Positions 16,169 to 55,155 of a DNA stretch of 64,000 nt are shown here, one piece after another; the first letter of the stretch is position 1, and every line of letters begins with the position of its first letter. This DNA comes from TPA_inf: Saccharomyces (taxonomy: Eukaryota). The notes beneath the pieces are model-generated. The model searched no databases, had not been told where the DNA came from, and saw only the letters and a list, made by a program, of their open reading frames with translations. The stretch spans positions 864,001-928,000 of the forward strand of contig BK006949.2 in the NCBI GenBank assembly GCA_000146045.2. The letters run 5' to 3'. A program made the translations under genes and the position numbers.

Positions 16169-16295
16169 ATTATTTCTTTTTTACTAAGAAAAACATATAT
16201 CATTTATATTCAGAAATAAATAGGATTATTAACCTAGTGCTCCCAAAAAAAATAAGTTGAACTGTCTCTTTCGAGAAAAAGAAAGAGAAAAGAAA

Positions 16296-16369
16296 TGGTC
16301 TCTAGCGGGATCGAACCGCTGATCCCCGCGTTATTAGCACGGTGCCTTAACCAACTGGGCCAAGAGACC
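16296..16369 (-). tRNA. tI(AAU): tRNA-Ile, anticodon AAU, 74 nt, no intron
   Basis: The reverse complement folds as a cloverleaf: acceptor GGTCTCT/AGAGACC, anticodon loop CTAATAA (anticodon AAT) and T-arm GGTTCGATCC. An A-box-like TGGCCCAGTTGG and a B-box GGTTCGATCC are present. Confidence 0.9.
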
Positions 16370-16385
16370 ATTATATTGTTAAAGA

Positions 16386-16726
16386 TGTTGTATCTCAAAA
16401 TGGGATACGTCAGTATGACAATACTTCATCCTAAACGTTCATAAAACACATATGAAACAACTTTATAACAAAACGAACAACATGAGGTAAAACCCGGCCT
16501 CCCCTAGCTGAACAACTCAAACGTATAAATGCCTGAACAATTAGTTTAGATCCGAGTTTCCGCGCTTCCACCATTTAGTATGATTCATATTTTATATAAT
16601 ATATAGGATAAGTAACATCCCGTGAATCAAGCTGATAAACAGTTTTGACAACTGGTTACTTCCCTAAGACTGTTTATATTAGGATTGTCAAGACACTCCG
16701 GTATTACTCGAGCCCGTAATACAACA
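16386..16726 (+). mobile_element. Solo sigma element (Ty3 LTR), about 340 bp
   Basis: The element starts TGTTGTATCTCAAAATG and ends with the inverted terminus ...TACAACA. Its internal sequence matches the sigma LTR as I remember it. Its end lies 16 bp from the 5' end of the tRNA gene, the canonical Ty3 target position. Confidence 0.8.
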
Positions 16727-16990: not shown

Positions 16991-19200
16991 TATGTTCGAA
17001 TTATCTTTTAAATTGTTGCTAAAAAAGTTAGAGTTATCACCAAATCAGTTGAGCAGATCACCATTATTCTTATGTAAATACTTGTTAAAAGAAGTAGCTT
17101 TCGCAAATACACCAATGCATTCGTTGATAATTTACGCAGTAACCTCTTACAGAACGCCTACATACAACTTAAACTCGTAATGTTCAGGCTTATAATGTCA
17201 GTATGCATTGTTACGCTTAGTATAGTTATTAAACTACGGACCAAATTATACTTTAAGCAGTAGTTAAAGAAAGAGATTAAATAAAGAATGATTTACAATC
17301 TAGTCGCAAAAACAAGTACAGTGCTGACGTCCCATCTTTTAATGCCTACTCTTTTGATGTTCACTTACATGTTACAATGAAGCCAAATCACAAACATTCA
17401 AATATATTCCATGGCCTCTTAGTTTGGCAACCCAAGACTCGGCATACCATATTGGTAACGCTGTATTGGAGAGATATATTCTAAAATATTGATAATTAAT
17501 GGCAAAAAGGCAGTATTAATGAAGGTTGAATATGGATCTTAATATAATCGTATAAGAGGGGCATAAAATATACGCCGATTGGTTCAACATTAATTATGAT
17601 CAATATAACAATGCGTCTGGTAATTACCATAACACTTAATGTAGCAACTCGTATAACAAACGTATCATGCTCAATTAATATAACCTTATCTCTGCTTCAG
17701 CACTGTCTGAGCTACTCTTTTAACGTTTCCTTTTGCAATAGGTACCTTCACACTAAAACATATACAATGGGTGCATTTAAATTGTTACCATAGCAACTCA
17801 TATTACGATTCATTACCACTCATTTCAACACAACAACCTCTTGCTATCAAACTTACTTTTGCTTTTATTGCAGATATCTCGTTATTTCTGCAAAAACAGC
17901 ATTCATTGGTAATGACAAGGTCAATTTTGGCTTTTATACATTTCACATGTACAGGATAGTGGAACACATTCCAAGGAGGTGAAGAACGTCCCCTTTGATA
18001 CTTCCATACAAGGACGATTAAAAATACATAAGAGAACAGATCTGCAAAAATGCGTTTTACTTCCTTTACAATCTCAATGCCGATAAATAAGCGCAATGAA
18101 GATTACTCAGCAACTGTATGTTGGCTCATGCGAAATATGAATGTTTCATTCGAGATTACTTATCTTGTTTAACGCTTGAACAGCGTACTGTAACTTCTTG
18201 CTACAGAATGATGGACCCCATTATAATACTACCGCCTTGCGAATGCGCAATTTATTATGATCATGAACCCTGAGAAATCAAATGAATATTTAAAGTGTAT
18301 GCAAAATGGACAAGAACATTATGGTAACATTGTCTACGACAGAATTTATTTTCTGACTTTAATAGTGACGGTTATACGAAATTAATGATTCTTCGAGAGG
18401 CAACTCACTTTACTGCAAATGGACCTGCAGAGTTTGCATCTAGAGGACAATATGCTGCACAAAAACGACCAATATTTACCTTCAACGAAAACAACCTTAA
18501 GAAACCCCTTCAACAACAACGCAGCTATCGTATCGTAGTGGTCTCCATAATGCGTGCACCTCCTTTAGCACTTATCGAGTAATAACATACGCTAGATAAG
18601 TAAAGTGTCCAGGATATTATAATTATATGATATTTCGGGAATGGTTTCTATATCTAGTTTTTTAACTTAGCCTAGACATTCGCCTCGTATTATAAAATAC
18701 ATGAAAGTGACTTGACTGCTTCATGAGAGTTATACTAAGAGCATTCATAACTAGAAGACACATTTTAGTTTTTATTACTGAGTAAGGGTTTAGTTTGTAC
18801 ATACAAGGCAACATGAAATTCAAGGTGCTGATGTTCAGTAAAGCCGCCTAGCTTTACGTGCCGAAATATTGATAATATGTCTCAGCCACTTCCTGGCTTA
18901 ACTATTTAAATGATATTTCTGCATCCATCGGTATGGCGCACAATAAACGGTATCTGAGAATATCGAAAAGAACACCACAATACTACTGAGTGCAAACACA
19001 GAAGAGCGTAGGTGATTCAACTAATTGAGTTAGAAACTGCATCAACGCTGCATAATAAAGATGCTGCTGTTCAGGATCATTTTTTTTAAAGACTGAAAAA
19101 AATTGCTTATCGCTTTGCACGCGACTCTTTTTTCTATTATTTGAAAAATAGCTTAAGGGAAAAGAAAAGAATAGGTAGCTTTCAAAGCAAGAACCTCTAC
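16991..19200. repeat. ORF-poor, AT-rich region with degenerate retrotransposon or LTR-like fragments
   Basis: No ORF longer than about 110 aa occurs over roughly 2.2 kb in an otherwise gene-dense window. Stretches at about 17440-17560 weakly resemble delta sequence in reverse orientation. The call is tentative. Confidence 0.3.
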
Positions 19201-19238
19201 GATAAAGGACAAAGCTAGAAGCAAACACCGCAAAAAAA

Positions 19239-19387
19239 ATGAGACCCGTTGTATCCACTGGTAAGGCATGGTGTTGTACCGTCCTATCGGCATTTGGTGT
19301 AGTAATTCTTTCCGTCATTGCTCATCTCTTCAACACAAACCATGAATCCTTTGTAGGATCAATAAACGATCCTGAAGATGGACCTGC
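19239..19387 (+). CDS. YPR170W-B: Exon 1 of a small intron-containing ORF encoding a predicted 85-aa membrane protein (YPR170W-B)
   Basis: The ATG is at 19239 and exon 1 ends in phase 2. A GTATGT 5' splice site lies at 19388-19393 and a TACTAAC branch point at 19452-19458. The intron is 99 nt. Confidence 0.8.
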
Positions 19388-19486
19388 GTATGTTATATTT
19401 TCTTATTTATTTCGCCGTTACCCATTTACCATCTCTTATATCTCTCCTCCTTACTAACAATTATATTTTAACCCTATTGTTTATAG

Positions 19487-19595
19487 TGTTGCACATACTG
19501 TTTATTTGGCTGCCTTGGTATACCTCGTGTTTTTCGTATTCTGTGGGTTCCAAGTTTACCTAGCCAGAAGAAAACCTTCGATCGAGTTGCGTTAG
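19487..19595 (+). CDS. YPR170W-B: Exon 2 of YPR170W-B
   Basis: The 3' splice site is the TTATAG ending at 19486. The spliced frame reads ...DGP-A-VAHTVYLAALVYLVFFVFCGFQVYLARRKPSIELR* and stops at TAG 19593-19595. Both exons encode hydrophobic helices. Confidence 0.8.
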
Positions 19596-47256: not shown

Positions 47257-47276
47257 ATGTCAGACTACGAGGAGGC
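47257..47276 (+). CDS. RPO26: Exon 1 (20 nt) of the shared RNA polymerase subunit Rpb6/ABC23
   Basis: The exon reads ATG TCA GAC TAC GAG GAG GC and is followed by a GTATGT 5' splice site at 47277-47282. A TACTAAC branch point lies at 47327-47333. Confidence 0.85.
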
Positions 47277-47352
47277 GTATGTGCATTCATATTGGAGAAA
47301 TTGCGTGCTTTAGTTTTAATTATATTTACTAACTTCTATCATTGTGATACAG

Positions 47353-47800
47353 GTTTAACGACGGTAATGAGAACTTCGAAGATTTTGATGTAGAGCATTT
47401 TTCTGATGAGGAGACTTATGAGGAAAAACCTCAATTCAAGGATGGTGAAACAACCGATGCCAACGGTAAGACCATCGTTACTGGTGGTAATGGCCCAGAA
47501 GATTTTCAACAGCATGAGCAAATAAGAAGAAAGACACTTAAGGAAAAGGCCATCCCAAAAGACCAAAGAGCAACTACTCCATACATGACCAAATATGAAA
47601 GGGCAAGAATTTTAGGTACAAGAGCCCTACAAATTTCCATGAATGCGCCAGTTTTTGTAGATTTAGAAGGTGAAACTGATCCATTGCGTATTGCCATGAA
47701 GGAGTTGGCTGAAAAGAAAATTCCTTTGGTTATTAGAAGATATTTACCAGATGGTTCCTTTGAGGACTGGAGTGTGGAGGAACTCATTGTGGATTTGTGA
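47353..47800 (+). CDS. RPO26: Exon 2 of RPO26, giving a spliced product of 155 aa
   Basis: The 3' splice site is the ATACAG ending at 47352. The spliced frame gives MSDYEEA|[16 protein letters not shown]...ELIVDL, with an acidic N-terminus and the conserved Rpb6 C-terminal domain. Confidence 0.85.
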
Positions 47801-48479: not shown

Positions 48480-48663
48480 ATCTACTTCAAGTTTGCTCAA
48501 TAAACGATTCGAAATTACTCTTTTCTTAGCTGTGCATTGTATAGTTTAGAAATACGAGAAATGTAAAAAAAAAAATAAAGTTGGAAAACAACTAACTAAT
48601 AAAACTTTCTTGTCAAGAAAGACACTAAGAACACAGAAAAGAAACACGAAGAGCAGAGGAAAT

Positions 48664-51600
48664 ATGTCGGATATTAAACAGCTATTGAAGGAAGCCAAAC
48701 AAGAATTGACAAATCGTGACTATGAAGAGACCATCGAAATATCGGAAAAGGTTCTTAAACTAGATCCCGATAATTATTTCGCACATATTTTTCTAGGGAA
48801 AGCACTTTCGAGTCTTCCAGCTAGTAATAATGTCAGTTCAAATCGGAACCTGGAGAGAGCTACTAATCATTACGTGTCCGCTGCCAAATTAGTTCCTGAT
48901 AACCTTTTAGCGTGGAAAGGACTTTTTCTCTTATTTAGAACCACTGAGGTTGTCCCAGACATACTTTCGTATGATGAATATTTTGACCTGTGTGGCCAAT
49001 ATGCAGACGCACTTTTAAAGCAGGAACAGTCTCAAGTAGAACTAATAAATGACATAAAATTACTAAAGAAAACGCATCCAGATTGTCAAAAAGCCTTTTA
49101 TCAGCATTTGAAACCTGGGTCGCTAATGGCGGAAACTATTGGTCGTCATCTATCTACACCCCAGGACGCTTTATTAAATCTTATAAAGATACTGTCTAAT
49201 ATTGAAACAACGGAAATAGGTAAGACCCTTAGTCAGAACAGGTTAAAACTAAAAGCTAGTGATCCTGATTATCAAATTAAACTAAATTCATTCTCCTGGG
49301 AAATAATTAAAAATTCAGAAATTGATCAGTTATACAACCAGTTGGTAAATATTCTCGCTGACGATCAAAAGAGAAGTGAAATTGAGAACCAGTGGTTAGA
49401 ATATAGAATCAAAGTGCTAAAATCAATGCCGCTGGATGTAAAAAAAGATTTTTTCACGAAAGTTAAGGAAATGGTCGAGGATATGGTTCTTGTGAATCAT
49501 CAATCTTTGCTTGCATGGCAAAAGTATTTCGAATGGACAGATTACGAAGATCTGGACAACATGGATGCCCCATTGATAATAAAGTACTTTAAGAAATTTC
49601 CTAAAGATCCATTGGCCATGATCCTCTATTCCTGGCTTTCCTCAAAACTATCGAAATATGATATTAAAAGTTTGGAATCGGCTAATAAACCACCTGAAGG
49701 CCATAAAAAGACGGAGAAGGAAACAGATATTAAGGATGTAGATGAGACAAATGAAGATGAAGTTAAAGATCGCGTTGAAGATGAAGTTAAAGATCGTGTT
49801 GAAGATGAAGTCAAAGATCAAGATGAGGAGGCAAAGGAAGATGAAGAAGAAGACCTTGATGATATAGAAATTGGTTTATTAGAGGAAGAGGTTGTCACTG
49901 TATTGACGGAGAATATCGTAAAATGTAAAAATAATATCTTAGCGCATCGCATTCTTTGTCAATATTACCTACTGACCAAGGAGTATGAGGCAGCTTTACC
50001 ATACATCAAAAATGGTATTTCTTTAATTGCCTATAATATAAAGGACCTGGGGGTACATTTGCCATTAACAAAAAGAGAATTTTCTCTGGATTTGGCTACC
50101 GTTTATACATATGTCGATGCCCCAAAGGACCACAATGCTGCATTAAAGTTATATGATAACATTTTATCCGGTGATTTTAGTAATATACAAGCAAAAATGG
50201 GCAAAGGTATAATTTTTATTGAAAGGAAAAATTGGAAGGATGCTATGACATTACTAACACAGGTGCATGAACAATCGCCTAATAATCTGGAAGTTTTATC
50301 TGAACTGTCATGGAGTAAAGCCCATATGGGTTATATGGACGAGGCATTAGCTGGCTTAGATACTGTCATCAAGGGTATCAAAGGTATGGATTTACGTTCG
50401 ATAGATTTCAGAGCATTAAACTTATGGAGGCAAGCCAAAGTTTACATTATGAAGCATGCTTCCATTAACGATGCTAAACAGGAAAACGTCAAGTGCGCAT
50501 TCAAATTACTCATTCAGAGTATTAAAATATTGGACACTTTTGCTCCCGGATTTTCGACACTGGGCGATATTTATTGCCACTATTATAAAGACCATTTGAG
50601 GGCCTTCAAATGTTATTTCAAAGCTTTCGATCTGGATGCGGGGGATTACACAGCAGCGAAGTATATTACCGAAACTTATGCAAGCAAGCCCAATTGGCAA
50701 GCTGCTTCTTCCATCGCTTCAAGATTAATTAAAGGTGAAAAAGCAAAGGCAGAACTGCGCTCAAATAACTGGCCCTTTAGGGTCGTAGGGATTGCTCATT
50801 TGGAAAAGCAAGAAGAAAGTGATTCTATTGAGTGGTTTCAATCTGCTTTACGTGTTGATCCAAATGATGTAGAGTCATGGGTGGGCCTGGGACAAGCATA
50901 CCACGCGTGTGGTCGTATAGAAGCATCTATCAAAGTTTTTGACAAGGCAATTCAATTAAGGCCCTCTCATACTTTTGCCCAATACTTTAAAGCTATTTCT
51001 CTATGTGACGTAGGTGAATATCTTGAAAGTTTAGACATTCTGGAAAAGGTATGTCAAGAAGCCGCTACAGAAGAGTCATTCCAAATTGGTTTAGTGGAAG
51101 TGCTTATGAGATGTTCCTTGGATTTATATTCGCAAGGGTTCTTGCTCAAATCAGTTTCAATTGCAAAGGACACTATTGAACGGATCAAGATAATTATCAG
51201 TGAATTAAAATGTGAGAACCAACAGGTTTGGATCTACCTTTCACAAGTACTGAGATTATTTATTTGGATAGAGTCAAAGGTTGATACTTTACCTGTTGAA
51301 TCACTAGTATCAATTTTTGAAAATTCTCAATTTTCTGGTAGTGAAGAAATTGATTCTGTCGACAATATCAAAATCGATACTTTACTCGATAGCACTACTG
51401 ATGATAATGTGTCCATTGCGTGCAAGTTTTTGATCTTAGCTTCAAAATATAGTGTTTCGGATCAAAAATTTACAGATATAGCAGGAACGGTCAGGGCCTC
51501 ATACTGGTATAATATAGGTATCTCAGAGCTTACTGCTTTCATAACATTGAAAGAACCGCAGTATAGAGATGCTGCTATTTTTGCTTTTAAGAAATCCATT

Positions 51601-52962
51601 CAATTACAGTCTAATACAAGTGAAACTTGGATTGGTCTAGGGATAGCCACTATGGACATCAACTTTCGTGTCTCTCAACATTGCTTTATTAAAGCAACTG
51701 CTTTGGAACCGAAGGCGACAAATACATGGTTCAACTTGGCTATGCTAGGTTTAAAGAAAAAGGATACTGAATTTGCTCAACAGGTTCTGAATAAATTACA
51801 AAGCCTTGCCCCACAAGATTCGTCACCTTGGCTAGGTATGGCCTTGATTCTTGAGGAACAAGGAGACATTATCGGAAGTTCTAAACTTTTTGCACACTCC
51901 TTCATATTATCTAATGGAAGGTCAAAGGCTGCGCAATTTATGTATGCTAAAAATGTCCTTGAGAATCACATTAATAATGGTGACGATGAAAGAGATATTG
52001 AGACAGTGGAAAAACTAACCACTGCTTCAATAGCTTTAGAGCAGTTTTTCAAAAAAAGTCCTGATAGTCAATTTGCTCTTCAATGTGCTCTTCTAACTCT
52101 TGAAAGGTTACATCACTATGAAAATGCAAACGAACTGGCTAATCGGTTGATAGGCATTTTGGAAAAAAAGTTTGAGAAAACTCAAGATGAAAGAGAACTG
52201 TTTAATTTTGCGATAATTAAAGGACAATTCGCTCGTATTCACTTAGGTTTAGGAAATTTCGAACTCTCTATTGAAAACGCTGATCTTTCTCAAGGTATTA
52301 TATCTGAATCGAGCGACGAAAAATCAATGAAAACCAAAATATCCAATCACATTTGCTTAGGATTAAGTTATTTCTTCTTAAACGACTTTGATCAGACTTT
52401 GAACCAATTCCAAGAACTGCTAAGCATTTCAAAGGATTCTAAGCACCTAGTTGTTTTAATTGCGAAGGTGCTTTATGATGTAGGTGAATCTGACACAAAG
52501 GAAATTGCTTTACAGGAACTAACAGAATATATAGCCACAAGCGGCGCAGACTTGTTAGTAACACTAACGATTGCAGCTATGTCAATTCTAGACGATAAGC
52601 GTGAAGATTTAAGCATTATTTTAGAAGAATTGAAAGCTTTGCCATTATCCAAACAAATAATAGATAAGCACAAAGACGCACCATATCTGATAGAAGAAAT
52701 TACTAAGAGACTTTATCGTAACGATACCGGTAAACAAGTATGGCAAAGGAGTGCGTACTTTTTCCCTAATAACCTCAAGGTTTGGGAGAGATTAGATAAG
52801 AATATTCAACGAAGAATAGCTTCTAATGGACAAAATAAAGTTACTGCGGAGGAGATGAGTAAACTATATTGTGAGAGTAAGAATTTGAGAAGCATACAAA
52901 GAGGTATGTTTTTGTGCCCTTGGAACGTTACTGCAGTGAAGGCGCTAAACGAATGTTTCTAA
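48664..52962 (+). CDS. SKI3: SKI complex TPR-repeat scaffold Ski3, 1432 aa
   Basis: TPR repeats run throughout the protein. The first ATG (MSDIKQLLKEAK) is at 48664. The ORF track starts upstream at a TTG. Confidence 0.85.
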   Translation: MSDIKQLLKEAKQELTNRDYEETIEISEKVLKLDPDNYFAHIFLGKALSSLPASNNVSSNRNLERATNHYVSAAKLVPDNLLAWKGLFLLFRTTEVVPDILSYDEYFDLCGQYADALLKQEQSQVELINDIKLLKKTHPDCQKAFYQHLKPGSLMAETIGRHLSTPQDALLNLIKILSNIETTEIGKTLSQNRLKLKASDPDYQIKLNSFSWEIIKNSEIDQLYNQLVNILADDQKRSEIENQWLEYRIKVLKSMPLDVKKDFFTKVKEMVEDMVLVNHQSLLAWQKYFEWTDYEDLDNMDAPLIIKYFKKFPKDPLAMILYSWLSSKLSKYDIKSLESANKPPEGHKKTEKETDIKDVDETNEDEVKDRVEDEVKDRVEDEVKDQDEEAKEDEEEDLDDIEIGLLEEEVVTVLTENIVKCKNNILAHRILCQYYLLTKEYEAALPYIKNGISLIAYNIKDLGVHLPLTKREFSLDLATVYTYVDAPKDHNAALKLYDNILSGDFSNIQAKMGKGIIFIERKNWKDAMTLLTQVHEQSPNNLEVLSELSWSKAHMGYMDEALAGLDTVIKGIKGMDLRSIDFRALNLWRQAKVYIMKHASINDAKQENVKCAFKLLIQSIKILDTFAPGFSTLGDIYCHYYKDHLRAFKCYFKAFDLDAGDYTAAKYITETYASKPNWQAASSIASRLIKGEKAKAELRSNNWPFRVVGIAHLEKQEESDSIEWFQSALRVDPNDVESWVGLGQAYHACGRIEASIKVFDKAIQLRPSHTFAQYFKAISLCDVGEYLESLDILEKVCQEAATEESFQIGLVEVLMRCSLDLYSQGFLLKSVSIAKDTIERIKIIISELKCENQQVWIYLSQVLRLFIWIESKVDTLPVESLVSIFENSQFSGSEEIDSVDNIKIDTLLDSTTDDNVSIACKFLILASKYSVSDQKFTDIAGTVRASYWYNIGISELTAFITLKEPQYRDAAIFAFKKSIQLQSNTSETWIGLGIATMDINFRVSQHCFIKATALEPKATNTWFNLAMLGLKKKDTEFAQQVLNKLQSLAPQDSSPWLGMALILEEQGDIIGSSKLFAHSFILSNGRSKAAQFMYAKNVLENHINNGDDERDIETVEKLTTASIALEQFFKKSPDSQFALQCALLTLERLHHYENANELANRLIGILEKKFEKTQDERELFNFAIIKGQFARIHLGLGNFELSIENADLSQGIISESSDEKSMKTKISNHICLGLSYFFLNDFDQTLNQFQELLSISKDSKHLVVLIAKVLYDVGESDTKEIALQELTEYIATSGADLLVTLTIAAMSILDDKREDLSIILEELKALPLSKQIIDKHKDAPYLIEEITKRLYRNDTGKQVWQRSAYFFPNNLKVWERLDKNIQRRIASNGQNKVTAEEMSKLYCESKNLRSIQRGMFLCPWNVTAVKALNECF

Positions 52963-53076
52963 AAATTTGGATTCGAGATAGTCAATCAAACCTTAATGTA
53001 ACATTAGTAATAAATTTTATCTTTTCTATAGAGTATAAAAGGTTATTAGACAGAGTTTATCAGCTGTATAGAGTAA

Positions 53077-55041
53077 TCATGCCATTTGGAAAACTTCCCA
53101 AAGCGATAGCAACCTCGATAAACGAGCGAAAACATTTAGCTCTCTTTCATTGACCATCTTTAATTGATTCAATTCGCTTGGTAATAGTAGTTCGTTCTCT
53201 CTTCCTTTAACATCATCTCTATTTGCCTTTTTTAATAATGTAGAGTTTTCTTGCTTTAATTTCTCCTTTTTAAAAAGTAAATTTGCCATATTCCATTCCA
53301 AGTTTTGTCTCATGAAATTATAGGAATGCGTTTCTTTGCATCTAAACAAAAAAACTGCCCTTGATGCTGATCTATCGGCTGTTCTTGGAACTTCCTGGAT
53401 TTCCACAGAATTGTATCTAATTAAAGATGCTAATGTAGATCTTATATCCTTTTCCTTCATTAACGCAGTTGAGTTGATAATTTTCTCAGACACCAGCTTG
53501 TTATCACGAATACAACGGCTTAAACGCATTGCTGAGGGTCCCAACGTAGACGCGATAACATACTCATAAACAGATGACTTTAATACTGGCATTAGTTTGC
53601 TATATGGAACATAGTAAACACCTGGTTTGGTTTCGTTCAAAAAGGGGAAATTTGATGATGCTAGGATTTTTAAATGACTATTTATCAAAGAAGCTGAGTG
53701 AGGATCCTCAGTGTCTGCATCCAAATCCTCCTCCTCTTCGTCTTCTTCTTGTGTATCTCCACTTTCTTGAAGAGATTTGGAAACAGCAGCAGGTAGCGCC
53801 GGGATCACAAATCCATCTTCGGTTTTTAATTTTTTACTGGGTAATGATGCAGCAGCGTTTGAGCCAGAACGCTTTTTATTGTCAGAGGGCTTTCTAGATA
53901 ATAAGCTTCCACGCAAGTCCAATTCTGCGGGGAGATGTCTTGCCAAGTCAATAGCATTAAAGGTAAGCCCTGGTGTCTTCTCCTCAACAAGTTCGGCTTC
54001 GTCTTGAAACGATTTTGCTTCCTCCAAATCTTGTAAAAGCCCAGTTTGAGTTAGTGGATCTCTAATTTTAGGAGACTTTTGCTCTGTGAGTCTTAATGCA
54101 ATTTTGTAAACTTGAGCTGTGACGGAGCCGACTCTTGTCTTGGCCAAGTTAATCAATTGTTTAGATCTTCTACCTTTCATAAATCTATCCAAATTAATCG
54201 TCAGAGAGACTGTAGGTTTAACAATCCTCAATGAGGTCTTTGGATCAACCGTTAAGATTTGTGAAAGCTCATTTGGTTTATTTATGATTTTGGCAAAATC
54301 AGTTTTCGCATTCATCTTGGCTTGGGATCTTTTCTTCAAATCGGACAACGGGGAGTTTCTGGGAATATTTTTGTAATGTTTTTCATATAAAAATTGCCAG
54401 AGATCTTCGATTGGGGTATAATGCAATTTTGATATTTGAATAAGATATCCCATTTCACACAGTTGCACGAATAGTGATGAAATGGTGTACTTCATGGAAT
54501 CTGACGTGACACTACTTAGATAATCTTCCACTGTTAAGGACCCTAATGATATAACGTTTTGTACAATTTCAGCCACCAGCTGTTTATGCTCCTCTTCGTC
54601 GTTTACACGCATTTGCGTAATAATTTCGTCAATAATCAACCCTGAGTAGAGTAAAATGTGTATCCCTTCCTCGTTATAGTAATAATAAGTCGTTTTTTTC
54701 CCGGATATTGCTGTTTCTTGCAGGTACTTAACACACCTTAATTGAGTTAATGAGACTAGTGTCGTCTTGACGCTGTCTACATCCATACCATCTATTTTCT
54801 CCACTAACTCGCGCACACTCAATCTGCCCAGCGCAACCAACATCCCAATTACAGAAGCTGCTCTTTCACCCAGATGTGCCTTCACCAACTCTTTGTAAAG
54901 AAACAAATCGGGATTCAAGGTTCTCTGTTCCAAGGATGATATGGTCATAACATCTTCGGGGGTGACCAACTTCTCAGATTCGACAGTGCTCTCACCTGTT
55001 TGGTTCTCTGCACTAAGCGCTTCTCCCAGTAACTCGTCCAT
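53077..55041 (-). CDS. RPC82: RNA polymerase III subunit C82, 654 aa
   Basis: The product has winged-helix repeats and an acidic patch (EEDEEEEDLD). The first ATG (MDELLGEAL) is confirmed at 55039-55041. The promoter carries PAC and RRPE motifs. Confidence 0.85.
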   Translation of the reverse strand: MDELLGEALSAENQTGESTVESEKLVTPEDVMTISSLEQRTLNPDLFLYKELVKAHLGERAASVIGMLVALGRLSVRELVEKIDGMDVDSVKTTLVSLTQLRCVKYLQETAISGKKTTYYYYNEEGIHILLYSGLIIDEIITQMRVNDEEEHKQLVAEIVQNVISLGSLTVEDYLSSVTSDSMKYTISSLFVQLCEMGYLIQISKLHYTPIEDLWQFLYEKHYKNIPRNSPLSDLKKRSQAKMNAKTDFAKIINKPNELSQILTVDPKTSLRIVKPTVSLTINLDRFMKGRRSKQLINLAKTRVGSVTAQVYKIALRLTEQKSPKIRDPLTQTGLLQDLEEAKSFQDEAELVEEKTPGLTFNAIDLARHLPAELDLRGSLLSRKPSDNKKRSGSNAAASLPSKKLKTEDGFVIPALPAAVSKSLQESGDTQEEDEEEEDLDADTEDPHSASLINSHLKILASSNFPFLNETKPGVYYVPYSKLMPVLKSSVYEYVIASTLGPSAMRLSRCIRDNKLVSEKIINSTALMKEKDIRSTLASLIRYNSVEIQEVPRTADRSASRAVFLFRCKETHSYNFMRQNLEWNMANLLFKKEKLKQENSTLLKKANRDDVKGRENELLLPSELNQLKMVNERELNVFARLSRLLSLWEVFQMA

Positions 55042-55155
55042 TTGGATCTTGCTCAACAAAAATTTTTCCCTATTCCTGTGTCAGCAATTCTCTATTGTTC
55101 TCAATATTTCTTCCACTATTATTATTTTGATCCAAAATTATTTTTTTCCTTCAAT

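Follow-up and report, generated by a model that had tools for sequence, protein, structure and literature searches.

YPR170W-B in a window of Saccharomyces DNA: an already catalogued, intron-split gene that almost certainly encodes the two-helix Vo subunit f of the vacuolar H+-ATPase

The window, that is, the whole stretch of 64,000 nucleotides of Saccharomyces DNA that was analysed, carries at positions 19239 to 19595 a small gene split by a single intron. Upstream of it lie genes for a Ras-family GTPase, Med10 and a WDR55-like WD40 protein; on the downstream side there is a 576-aa ORF that matches no Pfam family, together with a PNPOx-like gene and one for a Vps4-type AAA ATPase. We take this neighbourhood to be that of chromosome XVI, with the genes RHO1, NUT2, JIP5, YPR170W-B, BSP1, YPR172W and VPS4. 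The six-frame ORF list contains three ORFs at the locus, of 72, 61 and (antisense) 111 aa. The parts of the gene and the ORFs that overlap it are as follows:

19239..19387 (+), exon 1, 149 nt: codons 1-49, starting with the ATG, plus positions 1 and 2 of codon 50
19388..19486 (+), spliceosomal intron, 99 nt, in phase 2: it interrupts codon 50 between positions 2 and 3
19388..19393 (+), 5' splice site GTATGT, read from the sequence
19452..19458 (+), branch-point box TACTAAC, which contains a TAA at 19455-19457
19484..19486 (+), 3' splice site TAG, 28 nt past the end of the TACTAAC box
19487..19595 (+), exon 2, 109 nt: position 3 of codon 50, then codons 51-85 and a TAG stop at 19593-19595
19239-19457 (+), 72-aa read-through ORF, which ends at the TAA within the TACTAAC box
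19378..19563 (+), 61-aa ORF in a different frame, starting at the end of exon 1, crossing the intron and stopping within exon 2; rejected as a gene
18983..19318 (-), antisense 111-aa ORF overlapping exon 1; rejected as a gene

Joining 19239-19387 to 19487-19595 yields 258 nt that encode 85 aa followed by a TAG stop, which reproduces the 85-aa spliced product of the original prediction. The positions it gave for GTATGT (19388), TACTAAC (19452) and the YAG (19484-19486) are all correct in the sequence, and both ORFs that it listed at the locus, the 72-aa read-through (19239-19457) and the antisense 111-aa ORF (18983-19318), are indeed present. The spliced product is MRPVVSTGKAWCCTVLSAFGVVILSVIAHLFNTNHESFVGSINDPEDGPAVAHTVYLAALVYLVFFVFCGFQVYLARRKPSIELR, and the peptide encoded across the exon 1/exon 2 junction is …INDPEDGPAVAHTVYL…, with the splice point between DGPA and VAHT. 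All three signals canonical for S. cerevisiae introns were found, namely GTATGT, TACTAAC and a YAG 10-60 nt downstream of the branch point. One detail of the prediction needs correction: exon 2 had been placed in a different frame, but it lies in the same genomic frame as exon 1, because an intron of 99 nt equals 33 codons. The product is unaffected by this change. The unspliced frame is nevertheless interrupted, because the TAA of the TACTAAC box (19455-19457) falls in frame.

Elsewhere in the window, the following features were recorded:

47277-47352 (+), second canonical intron, 76 nt, GTATGT..TACTAAC..CAG, with exon 1 at 47257-47276 and exon 2 at 47353-47800
52519-53563 (-), third GTATGT...TACTAAC...YAG arrangement, 1045 nt
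16295-16370 (-), tRNA-Ile (anticodon AAT)
16386-16413, sequence resembling the start of a Ty3 LTR (sigma), TGTTGTATCTCAAAATGGGATACGTCAG, 16 nt upstream of the tRNA-Ile 5' end

Splicing of 47257-47800 (+) gives a 155-aa product identical to RPABC2 (Rpb6), a subunit of RNA polymerases I, II and III (PDB 1i3q_F); the 5' end of this gene is invisible to the six-frame ORF track because exon 1 is only 20 nt long. When a compact intron pattern (GTATGT, 20-300 nt, TACTAAC, 5-60 nt, YAG) was counted on both strands, two occurrences were found in the window, whereas 200 first-order Markov simulations averaged 0.3 and four of them contained at least two. The two compact patterns of the window exceed chance, and both introns, once removed, restore proteins identical to solved yeast chains. 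The third, much longer arrangement (52519-53563, minus strand) extends over the ends of a pair of large convergent ORFs, 48610-52962 (+) and 53077-55059 (-), and is probably a chance occurrence. The sigma-like sequence shows two mismatches to the sigma consensus, and no such match is expected by chance. Ty3 targets Pol III start sites, and the position of this sequence beside tRNA-Ile fits such targeting. In the 3 kb between the sigma-like sequence and the subunit-f gene there is no ORF of at least 150 aa; a search for the start of the Ty1 delta LTR gave no match.

The identity of the spliced product was established by comparison with solved structures and with protein families. The product matches PDB 6c6l_O at 85 of 85 residues (100% identity) and shows the same full-length identity to 22 further PDB entries (6o7t-x, 6pe4/5 and others), 23 in total, where the chain sequences compared are database sequences rather than the outcome of de novo protein sequencing. 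In these 23 entries the chain is deposited under the name 'V-type proton ATPase subunit f / Putative protein YPR170W-B', which bears out the YPR170W-B identity that the original prediction had given. The 69-residue modelled chain 6m0r_O (residues 7-75) is likewise contained in the product and crosses the splice junction at residue 50. Against Pfam, the product scored 136.3 bits with PF23489 (V-ATPase_su_f), for which the cut-off is 27, and covered profile positions 1-78 of 78; exon 1 accounts for positions 1-50 and exon 2 is needed for positions 51-78. PF23489 was the sole significant match in a scan of the product at E values up to 1, ABC_membrane and FixQ both falling under their cut-offs. 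No SND or TMEM family was matched in that scan, so the earlier guess of an SND/TMEM-like ER protein did not hold.

The Kyte-Doolittle profile of the product (19-residue mean above 1.6) contains two hydrophobic segments, at about residues 10-31 and 50-76, in agreement with the two helices previously proposed. Both termini are basic (MRPVVSTGK and ARRKPSIELR) and the 19-residue loop between the hydrophobic segments is acidic. By the positive-inside rule, this distribution of charge suggests that both termini are cytosolic and the loop luminal, an arrangement that has likewise been predicted for RNAseK (PMC11374810). Exon 1 would then encode the N-terminus on the cytosolic side, TM helix 1 and the acidic loop on the luminal side, and exon 2 TM helix 2 together with the basic cytosolic C-terminus. 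A full-length family score, identity to solved chains and a predicted two-helix hairpin, three marks of the V-ATPase subunit f/RNAseK family (PF23489), are thus all found in this protein; a fourth, presence in Vo on subunit a, is drawn from the PDB molecule names and the literature. We regard it as almost certain that the locus is S. cerevisiae YPR170W-B, a gene with one 99-nt intron that encodes the 85-residue, two-helix Vo subunit f of the vacuolar H+-ATPase. The gene, its intron and its product are already known and catalogued.

The original prediction had pointed to fungal orthologues as a check, and these were found: a database search returned 64 homologues of the spliced product. Orthologues of 85 aa, with 74-96% identity, occur across the Saccharomycetaceae (Saccharomyces, Naumovozyma, Nakaseomyces, Torulaspora, Kluyveromyces, Lachancea, Eremothecium and other genera), and remoter homologues in Wickerhamomyces, Cyberlindnera and CUG-clade yeasts. 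Some of the homologues are named at source 'V-type proton ATPase subunit f', 'YPR170W-B' or 'ribonuclease kappa'. In an alignment of 25 sequences, V51 and A52 are invariant and A50, whose codon is split by the junction, is nearly so. Gene order is conserved as well, since Med10, the WDR55-like WD40 gene and the long ORF that follows flank the gene both in the window and in the orthologous loci.

Intron positions were compared at nine orthologous loci, for each of which the GT..AG intron or introns were solved so as to reproduce the annotated protein. An intron after codon 49, in phase 2, is present at eight of the nine: those of S. cerevisiae strain BDN, S. kudriavzevii, N. glabratus, K. lactis, T. 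delbrueckii, E. gossypii, L. fermentati and W. anomalus. Its length ranges from 56 to 165 nt. The 5' splice site is GTATGT except in W. anomalus, which has GTAAGT, the 3' ends are YAG, and a TACTAAC box lies within the intron in all eight orthologues that possess it. The N. castellii locus is the one of the nine without it. A second intron, after codon 6 and in phase 0, occurs in most of the species outside Saccharomyces among the loci solved, and is absent from the window and from S. kudriavzevii; in T. delbrueckii this first intron holds no exact TACTAAC. On these comparisons, the codon-6 intron has been lost by Saccharomyces and the codon-49 intron by N. castellii. This pattern agrees exactly with Table S1 of PMC4202332, in which YPR170W-B is entered as 'intron' for S. 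cerevisiae and as 'cDNA' for N. castellii, and the row YPR170W-B_add has 'cDNA' for the four Saccharomyces species and 'intron' for the others. That catalogue, which marks the YPR170W-B intron as 'intron' for S. cerevisiae, took as its input the annotated S. cerevisiae gene set plus introns predicted from RNA-seq (Hooks et al. 2014, PMC4202332). Splicing in this strain is implied by three indirect lines: the comparison between species, the solved chains of the protein and the intron catalogue in the literature.

Alignment of the window with S. kudriavzevii separates the parts of the locus by how strongly they are conserved. Exon 1 is 91.9% identical and exon 2 89.9%, both with 0 gap columns, whereas the intron is 76.8% identical with 9 gap columns and the 5' flank about 72% identical with 24 gap columns. 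When the substitutions are read in the spliced frame, 19 of the 23 fall at codon position 3 (11 of 12 in exon 1 and 8 of 11 in exon 2); at the level of codons, 19 changes are synonymous and 3 non-synonymous. The identity by region and the position-3 bias together indicate that purifying selection acts on the spliced product and the splice signals, not on the body of the intron. Within the 5' flank, a 36-nt block, AAAAATTGCTTATCGCTTTGCACGCGACTCTTTTTT, at 19098-19133 (+), about 105-140 nt upstream of the ATG, is identical to S. kudriavzevii at 35 of 36 positions; this conserved block is a candidate promoter element.

The same comparisons bear on whether the real product could instead be that of the unspliced 72-aa ORF (19239-19457), a protein with one helix and a tail encoded by the intron region. 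This ORF has an entry in public databases, where it is called a hypothetical protein (P0048), and S. kudriavzevii also has a read-through ORF, of 73 aa. Nonetheless, the 72-aa ORF covers only positions 1-50 of the 78 in the PF23489 profile, its stop is merely the TAA of the conserved TACTAAC box, and the region of its tail shows 77% identity with indels when the window is compared with S. kudriavzevii, while the exons reach about 90-92%. Depending on the species, the 5' splice site and the branch point lie 38 to 114 nt apart, a distance that takes all three residues modulo 3, so that no read-through tail is conserved. Exon 2, which lies downstream of this ORF, shows position-3-biased purifying selection and holds invariant residues, and its residues are present in the solved chains. 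We consider it extremely improbable that the 72-aa ORF is the real product in place of spliced YPR170W-B. A 67-aa variant of the read-through ORF (P0047) has also been deposited as a hypothetical protein in annotations of S. cerevisiae strains.

A milder form of the idea is that the spliced subunit f is accompanied by a second, one-helix product of 72 aa, made through regulated intron retention and consisting of exon 1 plus 22 intron-encoded residues. Such a product, if real, could tune Vo assembly under stress or contend with full-length subunit f for the place on subunit a. The tail it would carry is conserved across species in neither sequence nor frame, and we judge its existence very unlikely.

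The two remaining ORFs, the antisense 111-aa ORF (18983-19318, minus strand) and the 61-aa sense ORF (19378-19563), are both open in the window and could be read as genuine overlapping genes. For the antisense ORF, five of the six codons that differ within the overlap with exon 1 are synonymous, but this bias is explained by the coincidence of its third positions with those of the sense frame. It is absent from S. kudriavzevii, where no minus-strand ATG ORF of at least 30 aa lies at that place, and in S. cerevisiae strain BDN it has only 77 aa; it also runs through the 5' flank, with its 24 gap columns and identity of about 72%, and has no Pfam match above cut-off. The original prediction had already called it probably spurious, a view that these results uphold. 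The 61-aa ORF crosses the intron, only 2 of the 11 exon-2 substitutions fall on its third codon positions, and its counterpart in S. kudriavzevii has a different start and a different end. There is next to no chance that either is a genuine overlapping gene. All three listed ORFs, of 72, 61 and 111 aa, are on these comparisons spurious by-products of YPR170W-B, the intron-split gene for subunit f.

What subunit f may do in the V-ATPase can be approached from the literature. bioRxiv 10.1101/2022.05.01.490144 and PMC10003446 identify the yeast Vo subunit f as YPR170W-B, describe its interaction with subunit a, and give no known function for it beyond anchoring. Subunit f is described as binding the membrane domain of subunit a along with subunit e. 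During assembly in the ER, a Vo intermediate without a, e and f (VoΔaef) is bound by Vma12-22p before those three join (PMC9963935). Knockout of subunit f in yeast leaves V-ATPase function unaffected (PMC7414150), and plants are without the subunit, as described for the V-ATPases of Citrus and Arabidopsis. In one paper (PMC11374810) the yeast subunit f is called 'Vma7', a name that belongs to the V1 subunit F, and this slip may mislead readers.

From this, the following course may be proposed. Splicing would remove the in-frame stop and so allow synthesis of an 85-residue hairpin membrane protein with two TM helices. In the ER, once the c-ring, subunit d and Vma12-22p are together, this protein would join the nascent Vo along with a and e, and would come to sit on the non-rotating side of the Vo motor, on the membrane domain of subunit a beside subunit e. 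There it would help to hold the stator part of Vo in the bilayer or to stabilise it there, while being dispensable for proton pumping as such. The published position, assembly and knockout data thus make a passive structural mechanism the most likely one, and we infer that anchoring or stabilising is the likely role of subunit f.

As a discovery the locus carries little weight, the protein being already visible in over twenty cryo-EM structures. The locus is useful as an example of how small, intron-split yeast genes escape six-frame ORF tracks and are prone to mis-annotation. This is illustrated here by the read-through ORF deposited as a hypothetical protein and by the spurious ORFs that overlap the gene on both strands.

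Set beside known systems, the gene in the window and S. cerevisiae YPR170W-B (Vo subunit f; PDB 6c6l chain O, PF23489) are the same gene, with no difference between them. Subunit e, the yeast Vma9p, resembles subunit f: it too is a small, stator-side hairpin membrane protein that binds subunit a, and it enters Vo along with a and f (PMC9963935). Vma9p nevertheless belongs to a different protein family, and gave no sequence match to subunit f in PDB, Pfam and profile searches. We know of no endoribonuclease, endocytosis or hydrolase-delivery role for subunit f in yeast. Metazoan RNAseK was originally reported to act as an endoribonuclease in vitro, and animal cells need it for endocytosis and hydrolase delivery (PMC11374810). 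The mammalian protein occupies the same place in Vo, beside subunit a (PMC7414150; bioRxiv 10.1101/2022.05.01.490144). RNAseK is longer than yeast subunit f, at 89-137 aa in solved chains and with a luminal loop about 12 residues longer, and the sequence similarity between the two is weak. The two-helix hairpin and the Pfam family are nonetheless shared between yeast subunit f and metazoan RNAseK (PDB 6vq6_f, 6xbw_f, 6wlw_T). A profile built from the yeast orthologues matches the mammalian RNAseK 'f' chains over residues 10-80 with E values of 3.6e-4 to 2e-3, which lends independent support to the homology of RNAseK with yeast subunit f.
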